From sequence record JX128257: 64,000 nt of DNA; one strand, written 5' to 3'. Shown here piece by piece: positions 11,298-44,670 of this stretch. This DNA is from Escherichia phage ECML-4. Position numbers and translations under genes: made by a program. The stretch's first letter is position 1, and each line of letters opens with the position of its first letter. The notes under the pieces were generated by a model that did no database searches, was not told the origin of the DNA, and worked only from the letters and a program-made list of their open reading frames with translations.

Positions 11298-11634
11298 CGG
11301 TTTCCCCCGCTTTCTCTAAAAGAAGTTTCAAAGGATATGTCCCACAAGCGGTGGCATATTCAACTCTGAAATATGAATTATCGTTCATGGCGAAATTGCG
11401 ATGAGGAAAATATTCACCATCATCAAAACCACCCATCCCTCCACCGACGCGATATTGTTTCAATTCTACTTCGCCACCGTAACGCAGTTGGGCGTAGAGA
11501 CCGATAGGAGCGCGAACATAATGCTCCAACCACACCCAATTACCGTCATGTAGACGGGTGGGTAAAAACGCAAACCGTACCTTGGGATGAAGAACGGCTT
11601 TAGCCAACATTTCTTCCGTCACTTCAGATTTCAT
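11290..11634 (-). CDS. hypothetical protein
   Basis: 114 aa ORF overlapping neighbours by 8 and 4 nt. Confidence 0.35.
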   Translation of the reverse strand: MKSEVTEEMLAKAVLHPKVRFAFLPTRLHDGNWVWLEHYVRAPIGLYAQLRYGGEVELKQYRVGGGMGGFDDGEYFPHRNFAMNDNSYFRVEYATACGTYPLKLLLEKAGETDV

Positions 11635-12236
11635 CCGATGCTTTCCTCTTCGATGACGTCTTCTTCATTAGGAACAACCGAGATCCCAAAGTCGATCATT
11701 TGAGAGAGTTCTTGTAAATCCTTTTCGAATCCATCCCCTTCCCGAATATAGAATACTGGGACCACGCGACGGCGAGTATCTTCAAAGATGGTTTCGGCGA
11801 TTTTGTTAATCTGGCCCACCACATGTGTGAGATTCAAGCCACCAATACCACAACCGATGGCGGGCAAACCGACATAGACAGTTTCATCAGCTTTGGCTTC
11901 AACGATATCATGAATTTGTTCAAACATGATCTGGACTGAGCTAATGATAGATGGCATGCGAGCATTGGGACCTGGGTAAAATTGAGTATACAAATTGAAT
12001 CCCCAGACACCAGTGTCATGATCAAACGCATAGGACATGTTTCCCAAGCGCTGTTCCGGACCACGTTCATCTAATTGGTCGGCGCGGTAAATCTCTGGGA
12101 AATTCAATCGAACGTGATTGGCGATACCCGCGCCCATTACAGACCAACAATTTGCGCCGTGAGCAAAGGCATTGATAAGATTGAAACTCGTGGCGGCTTT
12201 TAATAAATCGCCATTTGTGATAATATAAGTGGTCAT
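11631..12236 (-). CDS. macro domain protein (ADP-ribose binding/hydrolase)
   Basis: INAFAHGANCWSVMGAGIANHV matches the macrodomain N-x6-GGG-V-x2-AI signature; start moved to the ATG at 12236 forming an ATGA overlap with the upstream stop. Confidence 0.6.
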   Translation of the reverse strand: MTTYIITNGDLLKAATSFNLINAFAHGANCWSVMGAGIANHVRLNFPEIYRADQLDERGPEQRLGNMSYAFDHDTGVWGFNLYTQFYPGPNARMPSIISSVQIMFEQIHDIVEAKADETVYVGLPAIGCGIGGLNLTHVVGQINKIAETIFEDTRRRVVPVFYIREGDGFEKDLQELSQMIDFGISVVPNEEDVIEEESIG

Positions 12237-12469
12237 GCGTAACGTCTCCATTGTATAATTTCGTTGTCGACACAACTGACCTGAATGATACACATATTCT
12301 GGCGATGGTCGGTGAGTGTCATAATAAAACTGTCTGGTTGTGACATGACACGATTAACAGATATCCCGCGCGACATCAAACGAAAGCAAATTTCTTGATA
12401 CAAACGTTGCATATATCCTGAAACAGAAGCCGATTCATATGCGCGTTCAAATTCGTATAATTCGTTCAT
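12233..12469 (-). CDS. hypothetical protein
   Basis: 78 aa ORF, 4-nt overlaps on both sides. Confidence 0.35.
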   Translation of the reverse strand: MNELYEFERAYESASVSGYMQRLYQEICFRLMSRGISVNRVMSQPDSFIMTLTDHRQNMCIIQVSCVDNEIIQWRRYA

Positions 12470-16819: not shown

Positions 16820-17398
16820 TTATAGACCAAATTTACCGCGCCATTTCTGTACTTTGTGTTCAACAGCGCGTTCTACGTCAGGGATCGTACTCTTGAGATT
16901 GCAATGGCAGTCACAAGCCAGTTTAGCCGTGTGGCGAATAACACCGTTGATCAGATCAAAGATTTGGTCATTTGAACGCTGCGGCTGGTTCAGAAGTCGG
17001 GTGATGCGGCCTTTGTAATGATTGATCCTAGCCAACTGCCTATCCACCGGATCTACACCACCACAGAACCAGTAATCTTCCAAGGTATGCTCTGATAAGT
17101 TTGTTGTGTGGTTGGCCTGAGCCAACGCATAAATGACAGAATCGAATATTTCTTCTTTTGTCATGGAACCATGTTGTTGGATATGCTGATATTCACAAAC
17201 ATACAACAAATCCAGAGCCGAGATGATAACATCCGCCACTTCCCCATTCAAAGGTTCCGACGCAGCAATCCCGTAGAACACGTCCGATAGTTCACATGTT
17301 TCTTCTACAAGTTTACAGAACACAAATACAGATGGACGATCCGGTTCGTTCTGGCTGAGTTCATAAGATGTTTCTAAGATGCGACGAATAAATTTCAT
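16820..17398 (-). CDS. MazG-like nucleoside triphosphate pyrophosphohydrolase (T4 gp56 dCTPase-like)
   Basis: EETCELSD ... EVADVIISALDL resembles the MazG E-x2-E ... E-x2-D metal-binding helices. Confidence 0.55.
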   Translation of the reverse strand: MKFIRRILETSYELSQNEPDRPSVFVFCKLVEETCELSDVFYGIAASEPLNGEVADVIISALDLLYVCEYQHIQQHGSMTKEEIFDSVIYALAQANHTTNLSEHTLEDYWFCGGVDPVDRQLARINHYKGRITRLLNQPQRSNDQIFDLINGVIRHTAKLACDCHCNLKSTIPDVERAVEHKVQKWRGKFGL

Positions 17399-17895
17399 TT
17401 CAAATATCCTTCTAAGCGAAAGCGGTTGATATGTTGTATGATAAAGTCCATAGAGTTTTGAAAACTATATTTCCCCTGATGCTCATATGCATGAATAAGG
17501 GGAAGTCGGCTGTGAGCCAATTGGAATCGCAGTCTTGGTGGCATAGACAACAACTTGGCTGATGTCGCCGCGATAATACGAGAACGCAATATGGGGGAAT
17601 CTGAATCAACGAGAGGGATTTGTATTTTACCCAAATCCAATCCATACTTCTTGGCTTCATAACCACTCAGATGCCGAAGAGCATCATCGCGATATTTTAT
17701 CCAGTACCAATAACCCTCGATAGAATCGAAGTGCCCGTCCAGGGTTTCAATCGGATGATGGGTAAAATGCGATAGGAATTTTCCCAGATCAGTCCGGCTT
17801 TGGCTGTATATGTTGTAATGATTGACACCCTCAGTTATAGGCGTCATCGCTTTCTTTGAAACATTCAGTAATATAAGCATGATATAGAGTCTCAA
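17395..17895 (-). CDS. NADAR (YbiA-like) domain protein
   Basis: VNHYNIYS ... GKFLSHF ... PIETLDGHFDSIEGYWYWIKY ... ATSAKL aligns by eye to YbiA INFYS ... GDFSNFA ... PIKVDG ... TSEHYFQAQKF ... ATAPAKL; true start may be the internal Met (MTPITEG). Confidence 0.5.
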   Translation of the reverse strand: MRLYIMLILLNVSKKAMTPITEGVNHYNIYSQSRTDLGKFLSHFTHHPIETLDGHFDSIEGYWYWIKYRDDALRHLSGYEAKKYGLDLGKIQIPLVDSDSPILRSRIIAATSAKLLSMPPRLRFQLAHSRLPLIHAYEHQGKYSFQNSMDFIIQHINRFRLEGYLK

Positions 17896-18751: not shown

Positions 18752-18973
18752 TTAATCGTCATATTTGCCTGTCCTGAAATTCCATTTCCTGGCCTTGGAT
18801 AGGTCAAGATCTTTGAATATATTACCGAAGATCTTTTTAAACCCTGACTCTTCTTCAAGATCTTTCGGTCTCTTGACAGGTTCTTGAACCATACCGCCTT
18901 CGGGTTTCCCCACATCAGCGGTAGTGGTGGCCGGAGCAGAAGAGTCTTCGAGGTAATCCTGGAAGCTCTTCAT
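18752..18973 (-). CDS. hypothetical small protein
   Basis: 73 aa ORF followed by a strong terminator hairpin. Confidence 0.35.
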   Translation of the reverse strand: MKSFQDYLEDSSAPATTTADVGKPEGGMVQEPVKRPKDLEEESGFKKIFGNIFKDLDLSKARKWNFRTGKYDD

Positions 18974-30025: not shown

Positions 30026-31261
30026 TCATCGTTTCAACAAAGACATGAGGTTTACACTGGTCGACTTCGGATTGTCATCTATCTTCCGGACGGGCATTTT
30101 CAGATTAGTGTAAACCTCAGATGGTTCCCAACGCGTACCCTGCTGCAGGTGCCAAATATGAAGAGGAACACCCGTCTCAAAGAACACAGGCATCTTCCAC
30201 TTCTGGACGCCAGGAACGTGCCCTGCAGGAGCTTTTTCGCATAACAAGGTATCTGGTAGCCAGAGGGAACGGGCTTCCCATAATGCCTTACAGGAGTACT
30301 CAGGCCAGATGCGTTCCATGTAGTCGATCTCATCCCAAGTACGCTCAGCATCCCACCCGATGTAACGAGTGTTTTTCAGACGGAAGAATTTCTTAAGCCA
30401 ACAAGCACCGGAAGTCTCAAAGTTCAAACGATTGATGAACGTGATGTGACCAAACTCGGCGACACAATCTTTGAATGCCTGTTCAAGATCAGCCTCAAGG
30501 ATGTCGCATTCTTCATCGGTGATAGGACAGCCGTTGATCTTTTTCTTTCCGTGCTTGGTCACCCAGTCGTCACGGTTTGACAAGAATGCCGCGCCGTTGC
30601 GGTTGGACTCACTACCATCACGGTCACGCAACATGAACCCAGGGACGTCGATCTGATACATGTTGCCGAATACCATGTTCAGGGCTTCCAGGAAGTTCCA
30701 GGCGCTCAGGCGACCGAAGTATTTCCATCCCATAGCCGTGTCCCATAGCTTAACGAATTGATCACTTTGCAGTTTAGTCTCCAACAACGGACGGAAAGCA
30801 TCCATCTGAGTACGACCAGCTAGCCAATCAATGTAGGACTGAACACACGGGATCATCTTCGATTTGCGATAGCGGCAATCAGTATCGAATCGCATACGCT
30901 CGAAGTTCAGGTTATACCAATCACAGAATCGCTTGAACTCTTGTGGTGACTGAGGCGGTACAGGAAACTCACTATAAATCGTCCATGGGCCAATCCCATT
31001 ATAACAACAGCCCCAAAGGAACGCCATCCAGATCTTGCGCTCGATCTTCTCAAGCTGTGTAATGCCTTCAGTGACTTCAATCGCATAATCCATCAGACGA
31101 ACTTGTTGGTTGTGTTCTTCCGTATACGACAGCGCCTCCACCCATGCTTTGAGCAGATACATCCGATTCTCTGGCTTACGATAATCGATTGACAAATCAA
31201 TTGGGTACTTCCATTCAGCCGGAGGCGTATAACCTGTCGGCATTTTAGATAGATGCGTCAT
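30026..31261 (-). CDS. hypothetical enzyme-sized protein (candidate DNA-modification enzyme)
   Basis: 411 aa, Trp/Cys-rich, no motif recognised; lies beside the P-loop kinase and HAD genes. Confidence 0.3.
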   Translation of the reverse strand: MTHLSKMPTGYTPPAEWKYPIDLSIDYRKPENRMYLLKAWVEALSYTEEHNQQVRLMDYAIEVTEGITQLEKIERKIWMAFLWGCCYNGIGPWTIYSEFPVPPQSPQEFKRFCDWYNLNFERMRFDTDCRYRKSKMIPCVQSYIDWLAGRTQMDAFRPLLETKLQSDQFVKLWDTAMGWKYFGRLSAWNFLEALNMVFGNMYQIDVPGFMLRDRDGSESNRNGAAFLSNRDDWVTKHGKKKINGCPITDEECDILEADLEQAFKDCVAEFGHITFINRLNFETSGACWLKKFFRLKNTRYIGWDAERTWDEIDYMERIWPEYSCKALWEARSLWLPDTLLCEKAPAGHVPGVQKWKMPVFFETGVPLHIWHLQQGTRWEPSEVYTNLKMPVRKIDDNPKSTSVNLMSLLKR

Positions 31262-31803: not shown

Positions 31804-32718
31804 CTACGCCTTACGCATTAGCCCCAGAAGGGACACGGATGAGGTCTTTGGTTCTTCCTTGGCGACGGCCTTGTTTTTAGTTTTGGATGCCTTCTGCGGC
31901 TTCTCAGGCACTCTGTGAGCCAAAGGATCCTGACCGCCGACTTCACGCGTCATCGGATTGGTTTCGCAATAGCCGTAGAAGTCTTTCGACATCAGATTGT
32001 TAGCGCGGCAAACTGTGCCAAGCTGATGATAGATAGCATTACCCACCACCCACAACGGGGCGTCGAACGGCAACATAGCCAATTCGCTATCATTCCCAGT
32101 CTTGAATTCTTGGGTGTTCGTAGCCGTTTGGTGGTACAAAACGTCTTGCCCACTGTAATCATCCACGGCAACATTCCAGCCAAGCGCCAGCATTTCAGCC
32201 TTGGACTTCTCGAACTCCTTGGAGTAAGATTCGTTGCGCGACCAGCCGGAATCCCCCGCTTCTTTACCAGAGCGTCCACGGATGCGGGCATCGTACTGAT
32301 AGCGGTCTGGATATGCAAAGTACAGCAGCGCCAAAGAATCAATCGGATAGTTCTTGAACATCCATTCAGGACGCCACTTGTCCGACAGCATCAGGGGTTC
32401 GCCCTCACACACCAGGGTATATCCCTGAGCCAGCCAACCCTTGACGAGGTCGCGAGCAATATCCCCAGAGCCTGTGGCAGCATGAATGGCGTCCATAGAG
32501 GTCCAAGACGCCAGGCCGGATTTATTGGACACTGTGTATTGGCCGACGAAGATTAACTTCAGCTCTTCAAATTTCAGGCCGAAGGGGCGCGTCTTATCCC
32601 CAACAGTGTACGACAATTCAGTCGGCTTCAGCTTAGTGCGGAGCCACTCGATGAACTGTACGACACGAGTGCCTTTACCCGTGCCGCTGGTTCCTTTGAT
32701 TACGATGATCTTTGCCAT
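31804..32718 (-). CDS. P-loop nucleotide kinase-like protein
   Basis: N-terminal IVIKGTSGTGKGT, an NMP-kinase-style G-x-G-K-G-T P-loop; 304 aa. Confidence 0.5.
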   Translation of the reverse strand: MAKIIVIKGTSGTGKGTRVVQFIEWLRTKLKPTELSYTVGDKTRPFGLKFEELKLIFVGQYTVSNKSGLASWTSMDAIHAATGSGDIARDLVKGWLAQGYTLVCEGEPLMLSDKWRPEWMFKNYPIDSLALLYFAYPDRYQYDARIRGRSGKEAGDSGWSRNESYSKEFEKSKAEMLALGWNVAVDDYSGQDVLYHQTATNTQEFKTGNDSELAMLPFDAPLWVVGNAIYHQLGTVCRANNLMSKDFYGYCETNPMTREVGGQDPLAHRVPEKPQKASKTKNKAVAKEEPKTSSVSLLGLMRKA

Positions 32719-39510: not shown

Positions 39511-39521
39511 AATTAGAACAA

Positions 39522-39544
39522 CAAAGGGGCTTAATGCCCCTTTG
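39522..39544. terminator. bidirectional terminator between convergent genes
   Basis: CAAAGGGG-CTTAATG-CCCCTTTG hairpin with T-rich flanks on both strands. Confidence 0.5.
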
Positions 39545-39545
39545 T

Positions 39546-40004
39546 TTATTTCCCATCCCAAAAGTCGTCTTCATCGTCTACTTCATCAAACGCAGAATCC
39601 AATTCTGCGTCAGAGTACTCTGGTAGACGACCATTCTGTTTCAGATATTCAATTTCGTCATCTTCCAATTGAAGATCCGTTGCTATAAACAGCGCTCCGG
39701 TCTCTTCATCATGTTCAATGCTATAAGACGTATATTCAGAACCCTGAACTGTAATGATGATAGATGTTGGATCTTCTGGATCCACGTGAGCTTCAAACGG
39801 GATACCGTCAATTGGGGCGTCTTCTAAGAATGTTGCAAGGGCTACGGCAGCGCGGACAACATCCGTACCCTGTACCGATGCATAAATTTCTTCTGCGCCC
39901 GTTTCCCCGCGCTCAAAGAATTCAATCGTAGTTCCGTCTTGAACCCCAGTCCAGATAGGCATATCTGCTGGTGTATCGGCTTCAAATAATTTTGAAATTG
40001 GCAT
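39546..40004 (-). CDS. highly acidic protein
   Basis: 152 aa, very Asp/Glu-rich with few Lys/Arg. Confidence 0.45.
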   Translation of the reverse strand: MPISKLFEADTPADMPIWTGVQDGTTIEFFERGETGAEEIYASVQGTDVVRAAVALATFLEDAPIDGIPFEAHVDPEDPTSIIITVQGSEYTSYSIEHDEETGALFIATDLQLEDDEIEYLKQNGRLPEYSDAELDSAFDEVDDEDDFWDGK

Positions 40005-40039
40005 GTTCGTTTCCTCTATGGATAAACCTTATGGGATAT

Positions 40040-40489
40040 TTAGGCTTCTCTCTTCGCCAGCCCTGGTTTGAATACCACCATTTCTTCTACGTTATTGGCA
40101 CTCATAGAGGCTATGGAATCGAATCCTTTATTGATAAGTTCCTTCACATTATCGTGAATCTTACCAGGTTCTATCCCCAACTCACGCATTTTGTTTTCCC
40201 AAACAGAAACGTTATTAGAATCTATTACCAGAGTCTTCTTGGCCTTAACACGAAATGCCATGACAACAGGTTCACCAGATTGACGATAGCGAACGGCGTT
40301 TTCCGCGTAGATCTGCGCTTTTTCTGGATCCCCTGTCAGGTAAAATCCAGCACCCATCGTACCAGAGTCAGTCTGGCCAAATTTTTCAAAATCAAAGACG
40401 TCGAATTCAACATTCGACCCATGATATAAAACAATATCCGTAAAATCGGGCAATGTTGATTCACGATAGAATTCTAGGAAGGTTTTCAT
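40040..40489 (-). CDS. ADP-ribosyltransferase-fold protein (PARP-like H-Y-E class candidate)
   Basis: LYHGSN (H-G-S), GAGFYLTGD (G-x-G-x-Y-F/L), IYAEN, later NNVEEMVVF resembling the PARP catalytic-Glu strand; 149 aa. Confidence 0.4.
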   Translation of the reverse strand: MKTFLEFYRESTLPDFTDIVLYHGSNVEFDVFDFEKFGQTDSGTMGAGFYLTGDPEKAQIYAENAVRYRQSGEPVVMAFRVKAKKTLVIDSNNVSVWENKMRELGIEPGKIHDNVKELINKGFDSIASMSANNVEEMVVFKPGLAKREA

Positions 40490-40528
40490 GGATACCCCAC
40501 ACTTGCTGTATGGGGTATTTAGGAGGGA

Positions 40529-41722
40529 TCAATCAGGGGTAAACTCGTTCACAGGAACTTGTTCCGGCATAGACAATTCGGGGCATGCTGCCTTCATTGG
40601 CTCAATATACGGCTTGCTACCAACAATCCAGAACAGAGCGTTTTCGTTGAGCAGTTCTGGCTTATGCTGTTGGATCCAGGTCATGACCTTGCCTTCATAG
40701 CGAGGATGCAGCTCAATATCACCCCACTGATAATCCATCAGGTCATTATAGCGAACCCAATTCGTTGTATGCAAATCCCAATGGTGTACTGCAAAGCGTG
40801 GGAGCGTTATCTCCGGCTCTCCCTTCTCGCGGATACCCATCAGGAGGCCAGCCAGCGAAACGCTCTTAGAGGCATGCTGAAGATCCTTCTTACCATACAC
40901 ATAATCTGGGTTGTCGTGATAGCAACGAGTGAAATCCGTTATGTGCGGAAGATTAGCTTGTTTTCCAATAATACGCAAACGGCTTTCAATAAAGTCCAGA
41001 CGGTTGGGACCAATCCCGATCAGATATACATTTTTCAGATTTGGTTTCGGGTGCATTGCCAGCCCTGTCAAAATGCTGGTACAAGAATTACATGAACCAG
41101 CAGGAATGATCAGATCTGTGATATGGTCCGGAATGTTAGCAACCTGCTCGCCGCCCAGCATATGAAATCCTGCAATCCTCTCCGGAGAATGCAACGTATG
41201 ATCCAGAGTGATCCCATACTCTAGATAATATGCTTTTGGATTCTGCTGCTCAATCAATTTCTTGCAGCGCGGCTGGATAGTGCTGTTGTAACCCGAACCG
41301 ACAAAGTTGAATTCGCTGCCGAACCAGGCGCTCATCTTCACCATGTCATGGTTCATACACGTGGTGGGTTTGGTAGCGCCCAGGACTGTAGTTGTCTTGC
41401 CGCCGAAATGCCGTGAGACTGCCGTCGCCATAGGGGACTGCGGACTACCAACGACTGTACCATGGATAAGGTCTGGGGAGCCTCCGGCCTTTAAATGCTC
41501 AACCATCAGCCAGATGGCCTGACGAAGTTTACTGCCGTTGATGCCCTGCTTGCCATCTGTATAGTTGGACAGCGGCGCGAAGTAATCTTCACGCTTGAAC
41601 CAGACCTGTTGATTGGTTTCAGGGTTGGCAACGAGTTCACACGGGGTGTGCTTGTAGAGGTAGTCTTCCCAGTGGACCAGGTTGCGGTCGAGGGAAAGTG
41701 TATCGAAGATGGACTTGTTCAT
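40529..41722 (-). CDS. PLP-dependent enzyme, fold type II (ACC-deaminase/D-cysteine-desulfhydrase-like)
   Basis: GINGSKLRQAIWL resembles the G-N-K-x-R-K-L PLP-lysine motif; Gly-rich loop VGSGYNST; 397 aa. Confidence 0.5.
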   Translation of the reverse strand: MNKSIFDTLSLDRNLVHWEDYLYKHTPCELVANPETNQQVWFKREDYFAPLSNYTDGKQGINGSKLRQAIWLMVEHLKAGGSPDLIHGTVVGSPQSPMATAVSRHFGGKTTTVLGATKPTTCMNHDMVKMSAWFGSEFNFVGSGYNSTIQPRCKKLIEQQNPKAYYLEYGITLDHTLHSPERIAGFHMLGGEQVANIPDHITDLIIPAGSCNSCTSILTGLAMHPKPNLKNVYLIGIGPNRLDFIESRLRIIGKQANLPHITDFTRCYHDNPDYVYGKKDLQHASKSVSLAGLLMGIREKGEPEITLPRFAVHHWDLHTTNWVRYNDLMDYQWGDIELHPRYEGKVMTWIQQHKPELLNENALFWIVGSKPYIEPMKAACPELSMPEQVPVNEFTPD

Positions 41723-42546: not shown

Positions 42547-43065
42547 TCAAATACTGGTCATATAGAGTGGGACAACCTGCTCGGCAATCAACACGACCTC
42601 AGTAATAGTGAAGTCACCGCCATAAGAGTACAGTTTGATTTGCGCCCCGTTTGTCGCCAGATTCCCATCCTTGTCAACACTGAAGAACGTAATGAAAGAC
42701 AGGGTGTCCGGCGGCGGTACGCTAGCATCACGACTTCTTGATAACTGGTTCCCAAGAGAGCCAACAAAGTCAACAATCATGGTTCTGTTTGAAGTGGATC
42801 CAGACCATGAACCGACGATATTGACCTTCACCGGAAGAATAGAATCATAAGGAAACGCGTGAAATTTGTGATCTGATAATTTAAAGAACGGAGCCAAACC
42901 AGTAGGAGAAGAAGGGTTCGGAGTCTTCCCATCCAACACAGTTAACAAATCTATTCCAGTTGCCCCAGAAGTTAGAAGTTGTGACAAACCGGAAAATCTG
43001 ACTTCTGTTTTGATGCGATGGGTCTGAAGCATATTCCCCAAATAGGGAGATATCAAAATGGCCAT
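42547..43065 (-). CDS. hypothetical protein
   Basis: 172 aa ORF. Confidence 0.4.
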   Translation of the reverse strand: MAILISPYLGNMLQTHRIKTEVRFSGLSQLLTSGATGIDLLTVLDGKTPNPSSPTGLAPFFKLSDHKFHAFPYDSILPVKVNIVGSWSGSTSNRTMIVDFVGSLGNQLSRSRDASVPPPDTLSFITFFSVDKDGNLATNGAQIKLYSYGGDFTITEVVLIAEQVVPLYMTSI

Positions 43066-44469: not shown

Positions 44470-44670
44470 TTATCCGTGCTTGTTTGCTTCAATTGCCCTT
44501 AATTGAGCATCAGCGTCAGCTTTGGTGTCATGTGTCCCAAGAACCTTCGTCTTGGTGTGGTCAAGGACAACCCACTTGTCGCCTCGCTTTTCAACAAACT
44601 CAACAATCTCTTTGTTGTCGGTAGCGAGGCCATCCCACTCAGCAAGAAACTCACCGAACGTTTTCATCAT
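44470..44670 (-). CDS. small hypothetical protein embedded in tRNA cluster (66 aa)
   Basis: track ORF begins with TTG; more likely start is the ATG-ATG pair at 44670 preceded by GGTGAG. Confidence 0.35.
   Translation of the reverse strand: MMKTFGEFLAEWDGLATDNKEIVEFVEKRGDKWVVLDHTKTKVLGTHDTKADADAQLRAIEANKHG

Follow-up and report, generated by a model that had tools for sequence, protein, structure and literature searches.

A 149-residue ART-PolyVal protein of Escherichia phage ECML-4 with a T4 internal-protein-type start: a probable head-packaged ADP-ribosyltransferase

Polyvalent proteins have been argued to be packaged and delivered together with the invading DNA, with ADP-ribosyltransferase (ART) domains that modify host proteins "like T4 Alt" (Iyer et al., 2017; PMC5512222). 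Among the protein-modifying enzymes predicted in polyvalent effectors of phages and plasmids, the ART-PolyVal domains are, according to these authors, the most common; the ARTs of polyvalent proteins fall in another clade than Alt, and the triad described for the family consists of a His in strand 1, a Tyr in strand 2 and an Asp in strand 5 (H-Y-D; PMC5512222). A follow-up survey argued that myoviruses frequently package ARTs in their virions (PMC9503650). Phage T4 also injects small internal proteins, of which IPI* inhibits the GmrSD restriction enzyme. The capsid targeting sequence (CTS) is the sole conserved feature among these otherwise diverse anti-defence proteins (PMC9026906, PMC3012670). 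Ten N-terminal residues of IPIII are enough to bring foreign proteins into the T4 head, and within the CTS the targeting information lies at residues 4 and 7 and the information for processing by the gp21 protease at residues 8 and 10 (PMC9026906). Here we describe a gene of Escherichia phage ECML-4 (record JX128257), located at 40040..40489 on the minus strand of the 64,000-nucleotide stretch that we analyzed (the window), whose product joins an ART-PolyVal domain to a start of the T4 internal-protein type. Taking all the evidence together, we think it reasonably likely that this protein is a late-made, head-packaged and injected mono-ADP-ribosyltransferase that modifies the host. As packaged phage ARTs had already been predicted, the finding is not categorically new; it provides a concrete, small and testable example of them.

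The window comes from a Kuttervirus (Vi01-like, Ackermannviridae), and its ART region is 99.4% identical to phage vB_Hercules_SET. An earlier reading of this DNA from its letters alone (the sequence-only reading) had described an open reading frame (ORF) of 149 codons with the motifs LYHGS, GAGFYLTGD and NVEEMVVF. It exists exactly as described, with an ATG start and the motifs at residues 21-25, 46-54 and 133-140, and is far beyond chance; an overlapping plus-strand ORF (39971..40429) was without support. Orthologues with 60-100% identity were present in 224 records of Ackermannviridae phages of Salmonella, Escherichia, Klebsiella, Dickeya, Enterobacter and Shigella, among them Vi01_183 (YP_004327554.1), Sajous1 gp116, LIMEstone1 ORF173 and CBA120 orf229. 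Nearly all are annotated as hypothetical, some as "structural protein" and two as "N-acetyltransferase". The last label, given as "putative N-acetyltransferase" in phages Guerrero (Guerrero_190, L001 12001-12450) and Gloob (OL615011.1), looks like a misannotation, since no search supports it.

To the Pfam family ART-PolyVal (PF18760; Tox-ART-HYD2-like clade) the protein matched with 43.1 bits against a gathering cutoff of 31.2 bits (E 9e-11; residues 19-143, profile positions 7-128 of 140), and all 20 orthologue clusters carry a precomputed assignment to this family. One orthologue bears the UniRef name "ART-PolyVal-like domain-containing protein", so the assignment was already present in the databases. 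PHROG 4700, a family of unknown function, also matched (E 7e-95). The match to DUF3990 (PF13151), which groups ARTs of toxin-antitoxin systems and polymorphic toxins, was marginal (32.7 bits against 32.2) and covered residues 20-89 only (profile positions 2-68 of 152); the DUF3990-related PADLOC candidate-defence models PDC-M13A/B matched the same N-terminal half. Judged by these profiles, DUF3990 is a sister family and not the home family of the protein. Searches of PDB sequences with the single sequence or with the orthologue profile returned noise only, and a diverse 35-member family profile was needed for informative matches. This profile reached PARP4 (E 0.001), exotoxin A (0.002), diphtheria toxin (0.012), PARP12/14 and the tankyrases by sequence alone, all at E 0.001-0.02. 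The protein has the ADP-ribosyltransferase fold, and its closest structural and sequence matches are protein-modifying ARTs, namely PARPs, diphtheria toxin and exotoxin A. None of the Pfam families PARP, Diphtheria_C and Exotox-A_cataly matched it even at E<=1, DarT gave no match in PADLOC or Pfam, and Alt-type families gave none in Pfam or PHROG. By these profile tests the protein is not a member of the PARP, diphtheria-toxin, DarT or Alt families, and we regard its fold and its place in ART-PolyVal as close to certain.

A profile search, run exhaustively over 1.84 billion representatives, yielded 1,327 relatives. Among the nearest 148 non-orthologous ones, 81 are longer than 1000 residues (the longest has 7,334) and they carry up to ten copies of the domain, the hallmark of phage and conjugative-element polyvalent proteins; 15 have 200 residues or fewer. 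The ECML-4 protein is a solo product of 149 residues and not a domain of such a large protein. The large multi-domain architecture is a habit of the ART-PolyVal family and not a requirement of the Pfam domain.

The sequence-only reading had seen in the three motifs the H-Y-E catalytic core of an ART with no accessory domain, and our analysis agrees with it on each point: the protein stands alone without any PARP accessory element, a profile alignment sets H23, Y50, Y61 and E136 on motifs of exotoxin A and PARP4, and the motif residues are conserved in orthologue clusters and in about 300 distant domains alike. Invariant in the 20 orthologue clusters (60-99% identity) were H23-G24-S25, G46, G48-F-Y50-L-T-G53, Y61, D124 and E136; within NVEEMVVF the second glutamate alone (E136) is conserved, E135 being variable. 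Distant conservation was counted over the roughly 300 copies of the domain that the best 148 non-orthologous proteins contain. In the strand 1 NAD+-binding motif H23-G24-S25 (40415..40423; this and the following positions are on the minus strand), which aligns to YHGT of exotoxin A, His was found in 297 of 298 copies, Gly in 283 of 298 and Ser or Thr in 294 of 297. Strand 2, G46-A-G48-F-Y50-L-T-G53 (40331..40354), carries the nicotinamide-stacking Tyr and aligns to GFYIAG of exotoxin A and GSGIYF of PARP4; position 50 was aromatic in 292 of 299. Y61 (40307..40309), 11 residues after Y50, was Tyr in 261 of 294 and aligns to the second Tyr of exotoxin A "AYGYA". Counting the distant domains that align at each position, D124 of the G-[FY]-D-[SG] strand (40118..40120; aligned to PARP4 "GYDSV") was Asp in 91 of 95, and E136 of the E-M-V-V-F strand (40082..40084; aligned to the Glu of PARP4 "DDEFVVY") was Glu in 47 of 55. 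As whole motifs, the family profile placed YHG[ST] on the YHGT of exotoxin A, GxGFY...A..YA on GFYIAGDPALAYGYA, and "GYDg....E-v-v-v-F" on PARP4 "GYDSV....DDE-F-V-V-Y". In these enzymes the aligned positions are the His that binds NAD+, the two Tyr that stack against the nicotinamide and the catalytic Glu. E136 is therefore read as the putative catalytic residue, considering its alignment with the PARP4 Glu, the established roles of these residues and its position in the secondary structure. The conservation pattern in these alignments gives no hint of a pseudo-enzyme, and the protein is very likely an active one. Since it is devoid of PARP accessory elements, mono-ADP-ribosylation would be the default expectation, and poly-ADP-ribosylation is not expected.

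The same order of elements (H-G-[ST], G-x-G-x-Y, a Tyr at +11, a [YF]-D-S strand and an E-hydrophobic strand) is found in PARP, diphtheria toxin and exotoxin A, which are structural matches too; compared with PARP, the phage protein is much smaller, has neither the helical nor the regulatory domains and contains a two-helix insert of about 35 residues (residues 94-120). AcrIF11 (PDB 6kyf), a minimal phage ART-fold anti-CRISPR that mono-ADP-ribosylates Cas8f, belongs to another sub-clade and triad context, and no sequence similarity to it was detected. To our knowledge AcrIF11 is expressed from the anti-CRISPR locus after entry, and we do not know of it as a virion-packaged protein. Cyanopodophage A4 gp28 (PDB 9k3a_B), a 1071-residue multi-domain pre-ejectosome protein of a podovirus, has no sequence-level match to the family profile; the portion of it that aligns is presumably its unassigned alpha+beta domain. 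The sequence-only reading had pointed to T4 Alt, ModA and ModB, which is apt if they are taken as functional analogues, but not as a statement of clade, as the triad is H-Y-E and not the Arg, Ser-x-Ser, Glu arrangement (R-S-E) of the Alt type. What we propose for the protein resembles Alt in its late synthesis, prohead entry, processing by a gp21-family protease, injection and NAD+-dependent modification of host proteins. Alt itself, which modifies the alpha subunit of RNA polymerase among other proteins, is far larger, belongs to the R-S-E (Alt/VIP2) clade and has no detectable sequence relationship to the ECML-4 protein, whose N-terminal tag resembles instead those of IPI, IPII and IPIII.

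This tag, MKTFLEFYRE (codons 1-10; 40460..40489, minus strand), reads as a T4 internal-protein-type CTS that includes a hydrophobic-x-Glu putative prohead-protease site, where cleavage would fall after E10. In the T4 genome record (NC_000866) IPI starts with MKTFKEF, and IPII and IPIII start with MKTYQEFIAE; MKTFLEF equals the IPI start at 6 of 7 positions. M1-K2-T3-F4 is invariant in 21 orthologue sequences, position 5 is Leu in 20 of them, position 6 is E, D or Q and position 7 is F or Y in 20. At the processing positions, residue 8 is L, Y or F in all and residue 10 is Glu in 15, the ECML-4 protein having Y8-R9-E10. The N-terminus is conserved above the protein average of 72%, and the residues at the targeting positions (4, 7) and the processing positions (8, 10) agree with the mutational data summarised in PMC9026906. 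A search with a loose CTS pattern, ^MK[TS][FY].[EDQ][FYW], picked out 3 of the 647 Met-starts of the window and nothing across 100 shuffles, and as a positive control it recovered exactly ipI, ipII and ipIII from a 16-kb T4 region. In Sajous1, a Salmonella phage nearly identical to the window, it returned gp82 and gp116 only (1,864 Met-starts in about 144 of 157 kb, the remaining stretch at 81.5-95 kb corresponding to the scanned window). Sajous1 also encodes a Peptidase_S77 of the T4 gp21 family (gp155, 97 bits) and a T4-type scaffold (gp156, T4_CASP), and gp155 itself is in the Sajous1 virion mass spectrometry (MS) list. These observations suggest that packaging of the protein is CTS-dependent, which we consider likely. 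The top literature on this phage group makes no mention of capsid targeting, and the link between the CTS and Ackermannviridae appears not to have been made before. A 2024 review of Ackermannviridae is likewise silent on ADP-ribosylation.

The likeness to IPI, IPII and IPIII extends from the M-K-T-[FY]-x-E-F start and the hydrophobic-x-Glu site to the small size, the location outside the main head module and the presence of few such genes per genome. No T4 internal protein has an ART fold, though, the mature parts are unrelated and the mature ECML-4 protein is acidic (isoelectric point, pI, about 5.1). With the described ART-PolyVal domains it shares the family, the fold, the strand-1 His, the strand-2 Tyr, a conserved acidic residue in the C-terminal strands and the predicted role of a virion-delivered host-modifying enzyme (PMC5512222). 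It differs from them in being solo, in its T4-type tag against the "FKxWFGxSKVVD" leader of embedded copies, in having Glu (E136) at the PARP catalytic position against H-Y-D, and in its host phage, a myovirus with a T4-like head.

Virion proteomes of two phages bear on packaging. LIMEstone1 ORF173, which is 63% identical to the ECML-4 protein, and its neighbour ORF174 are "confirmed structural proteins" of that phage, with one peptide each by virion MS. CsCl-purified Sajous1 virions gave 10 spectra for gp116, the orthologue at the same map position, 31 for its acidic neighbour gp115 and 16 for the needle knob gp119, and 1-5 for most clearly non-structural enzymes. The published proteome of phiD3 lists 10 proteins and is uninformative on the ART. 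The evidence that orthologues are present in virions is independent, comes from two genera and is of moderate strength, and we hold it highly probable that the ART is a virion protein.

Transcription of the gene is likewise of a late type. A motif of the late-promoter type, CTAAATACCCC, lies 22 nt upstream of the start codon (40512..40522, minus strand), and a second one with one mismatch, CTAAATATCCC, overlaps the stop codon, ahead of the gene for the acidic virion protein (40033..40043, minus strand); the remaining three exact CTAAATACCCC copies in the window precede tailspike genes. These 5 matches compare with 0.75 expected, and no shuffle reached 5. The motif has been reported as a regulatory motif of Ackermannviridae (PMC7283392), and LIMEstone1 is annotated with a "putative late promoter" of the same CTAAATACCCC sequence at the same place as well as with a late promoter at the equivalent of the CTAAATATCCC site. 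Considering the motif, this annotation and the presence of T4-type late transcription factors in the phage group, we read the ART gene as a late gene with its own promoter.

All of this points to a sequence of events in which the gene would be transcribed late from its CTAAATACCCC promoter, the N-terminal CTS (MKTFLEFYRE) would recruit the product to the scaffolding core of the prohead, and the Peptidase_S77 prohead protease would probably trim it after Glu10. The protein would then stay in the mature, DNA-filled head and be ejected with the genome at the next infection. Once injected, it could use host NAD+ for the mono-ADP-ribosylation of one or more host macromolecules before phage genes are expressed. 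The likely purpose would be to take over or disarm the host, with the transcription or translation machinery (as for Alt) or a defence protein (as for AcrIF11) as target. Activity, CTS-dependent packaging, cleavage, injection, mono- rather than poly-modification and the class of target are the steps that we infer.

Several observations weigh against this picture. The literature that we searched holds no biochemically characterised member of ART-PolyVal or DUF3990, so the activity of the protein is deduced from conservation only. The residue aligned at the catalytic position is Glu, as opposed to the H-Y-D triad of Iyer et al. (PMC5512222); the His and Tyr of that triad are present, and two acidic residues are conserved, D124 (91/95) and E136 (47/55). 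The virion counts should be approached cautiously, as the LIMEstone1 detection is a single peptide, and in Sajous1 the non-structural RegB gave 31 spectra and a ParB-domain protein 11 against 10 for gp116. Moreover, gp82, the other CTS-like ORF of Sajous1, is absent from the virion proteome. Cleavage may not be universal, given that E10 is found in only 15 of 21 orthologue sequences. Finally, the embedded polyvalent copies have a related leader, F-K-x-W-F-G-x-S-K-V-V-D, which F4, the aromatic residues at 7-8 and S11 of the ECML-4 protein resemble, so the CTS pattern may be partly an ancestral element of the domain that was exapted.

An alternative is that the protein is an active, late-made ART that acts late in infection in the producing cell, as T4 ModA and ModB act after expression, with an adventitious presence in virions and a CTS likeness that is an inherited element of the domain. 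The late-promoter motif proves late synthesis only, the MS counts are low, non-structural proteins are also in the Sajous1 list, a single peptide carries the LIMEstone1 detection, and the embedded copies share the F..WF..S leader. We nevertheless find this explanation improbable. Two independent virion proteomes detect the orthologue, and both also detect its neighbour; the invariant MKTF start agrees with IPI at 6 of 7 positions; and no more than 2-3 ORFs per genome show the pattern, which in T4 picks exactly the ip genes. In addition, unrelated neighbouring ORFs of the metagenomic locus L009 have the same start as the ART homologue there, and homologues are located within clusters of head and tail genes.

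A second alternative follows from the gene next door. The PLP (pyridoxal phosphate) decarboxylase gene upstream of the ART gene is the orthologue of ViI gp226, the characterised O-serinyl-thymidine (O-SerT) decarboxylase of the 5-NeOmdU DNA hypermodification pathway (PMC8989533), and this adjacency suggests that the ART might have a part in processing the hypermodified phage DNA. A nucleic-acid target in the manner of DarT, pierisin or Tpt1 could also mean ADP-ribosylation of host DNA or RNA. However, synthesis of 5-NeOmdU was reconstituted in vitro by gp67/gp243, gp160, gp247 and gp226 alone, with no ART-like protein (PMC8989533), and we therefore treat the adjacency as incidental. The promoter of the ART gene lies between it and gp226, and together with the reconstitution this led us to drop a role in thymidine hypermodification as the main explanation. 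The adjacency is also loose, since a homing endonuclease sits in the same LIMEstone1 neighbourhood, and the homologue in loci L009 and L010 is not near any hypermodification gene. PADLOC finds no DarT match, and the best structural and sequence matches are the protein-modifying PARPs, diphtheria toxin and exotoxin A. A nucleic-acid target is accordingly, in our opinion, a little less probable still than action in the producing cell.

Two further alternatives concern the chemistry. An NAD+-degrading enzyme, either an NADase or an NAD+ phosphorylase that would, for example, manipulate NAD+-dependent defence signalling of the host, seems quite unlikely to us: such enzymes do not have the H-Y-E arrangement, the closer matches are transferases, and the relatives form part of polyvalent proteins with several effectors, for which modification of macromolecules is predicted (PMC5512222). 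An injected destroyer of NAD+ would also be expected to resemble abortive infection and so to harm the phage. Least probable of all, to the point that we give it little weight, is a catalytically dead ART-fold head component with a structural or scaffolding part only, as NAD-site residues that are invariant across genera and conserved in hundreds of distant domains are the opposite of a pseudo-enzyme pattern.

A broader reading of the packaging of the ART is suggested by its metagenomic homologues, for which a narrower alignment of standalone ART homologues gave 8 short loci. On T4-like contigs among them the standalone homologue directly follows the genes for scaffold, major head and tail tube. 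At L009 3631-5385 (and also in L008, L006 and L007) a pair of paralogous DUF6934-like ORFs and a further small ORF come after it, and in L009 the ART homologue and these three adjacent, unrelated small ORFs all start with MKSFKQF or MKSFKEY. This locus type looks like an array of genes for CTS-tagged cargo. We put forward, tentatively and leaning slightly against it ourselves, that Ackermannviridae and some uncultured T4-like phages have "unbundled polyvalent proteins", that is, mini-effectors that are individually CTS-tagged, packaged via the internal-protein pathway and released by the protease. The cargo would here be the H-Y-E ART and one or two tiny proteins, and in L009 the ART and three unrelated ORFs. 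If this were true, the ART would be the first enzymatic cargo of an internal-protein system outside T4, an injected pre-emptive weapon that acts on a defence or takeover target within seconds of infection, and its CTS would be an exaptation of the N-terminal leader already present in the domain.

Two other ORFs of the window begin in a similar way. The first (44470-44667, minus strand; 65 residues) starts with MKTFGEFLAE and is flanked by tRNA-Asn and tRNA-Met; it is shared by 408 phage records, some of them from T4-like phages in which the alignment is limited to the mature part. The second (18752-18973, minus strand; 73 residues) starts with MKSFQDYLED and corresponds to Sajous1 gp82. From their starts, both products are candidates for internal head proteins.

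A functional CTS would have consequences beyond this gene: the internal-protein packaging pathway would extend beyond Straboviridae, an enzyme cargo of that pathway would be identified, and a natural tag to load foreign proteins into Ackermannviridae heads would become available. Injected phage cargo also matters for the prediction of host range against NAD+- and ADP-ribose-based defences. ViI, CBA120 and the Kuttervirus phages are well studied, genetically tractable and used in biocontrol and diagnostics, and a solo ART of 149 residues in such a tractable group is thus a convenient entry to the first biochemistry of the clade.

The sequence-only reading had further placed the ART in an ADP-ribosylation writer/eraser toolkit with macro and NADAR genes of the window. 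The macrodomain is there, as a DarG-type protein encoded at 11631-12293 on the minus strand; it matched PDB 5m3i, the DarG macrodomain of M. tuberculosis deposited as "RNase III inhibitor" (E 3.7e-5), the PADLOC DarG model (E 2.1e-10) and, marginally, Pfam Macro (E 0.14). PHROG 335 names this protein "phosphatase", and an "ADP-ribose binding protein" is among the Vi01 annotations for that region. Its gene lies among early genes, 28 kb from the ART gene. A function against host DarT or ADP-ribose signalling is no less likely for it than the reversal of the ART's products, and a role as phage counter-measure to DarT-type DNA ADP-ribosylation is plausible. No NADAR was found among 40 ORFs scanned with Pfam and 10 with PHROGs. 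The ORF at 17395-17895 (minus strand, 166 residues), whose FLSHFTHHPIETLDGHFDSIEGYWYW is NADAR-like by eye and which is probably what had been called NADAR, has no match in Pfam (E<=10), PDB (E<=10), the PHROG annotation or PADLOC. What had been said of the fold is sound, and of the proposed context only the macrodomain gene is borne out.

The minus-strand run around the ART gene consists, in order, of the tail needle knob (42547-43065; Pfam Phage_tail_NK), a 227-residue ORF, the PLP decarboxylase (40529-41722), the ART, the acidic protein and a terminator. The decarboxylase (ViI gp226 orthologue, YP_004327553) has 397 residues against 424 in Vi01 and Sajous1, with a shorter N-terminus. Two other genes of the window belong to the ViI 5-NeOmdU pathway, the amino acid:DNA transferase (30026-31261, minus strand; Pfam ADDT, E 3e-58) and the 5-hmdU DNA kinase (31804-32718, minus strand; HMUD2, E 6e-169). 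The downstream neighbour of the ART (39546..40004, minus strand) is a virion protein of 152 residues with a pI of 4.05, 40 D+E against 6 K+R and a disordered acidic tail. It is confined to Ackermannviridae, always adjoins the ART and has its own late-promoter motif. Its AlphaFold2 (AF2) model (pLDDT 75) gave no convincing fold match, and it may be a DNA mimic, a partner of the ART or its inhibitor. The two-gene late unit is closed by an intrinsic terminator hairpin (39520..39546, minus strand) with an 11-bp stem, 6 GC pairs and a T-rich tail, and LIMEstone1 has a terminator at the same place. At the other end of the unit, just ahead of the ART start, an inverted repeat, ATACCCCA-N11-TGGGGTAT (40491-40522, minus strand), extends across both the late-promoter motif and the Shine-Dalgarno region. 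Its arms are kept in LIMEstone1 while the loop differs, and it could be a hairpin of the 5′ untranslated region or an element that acts at the DNA level.

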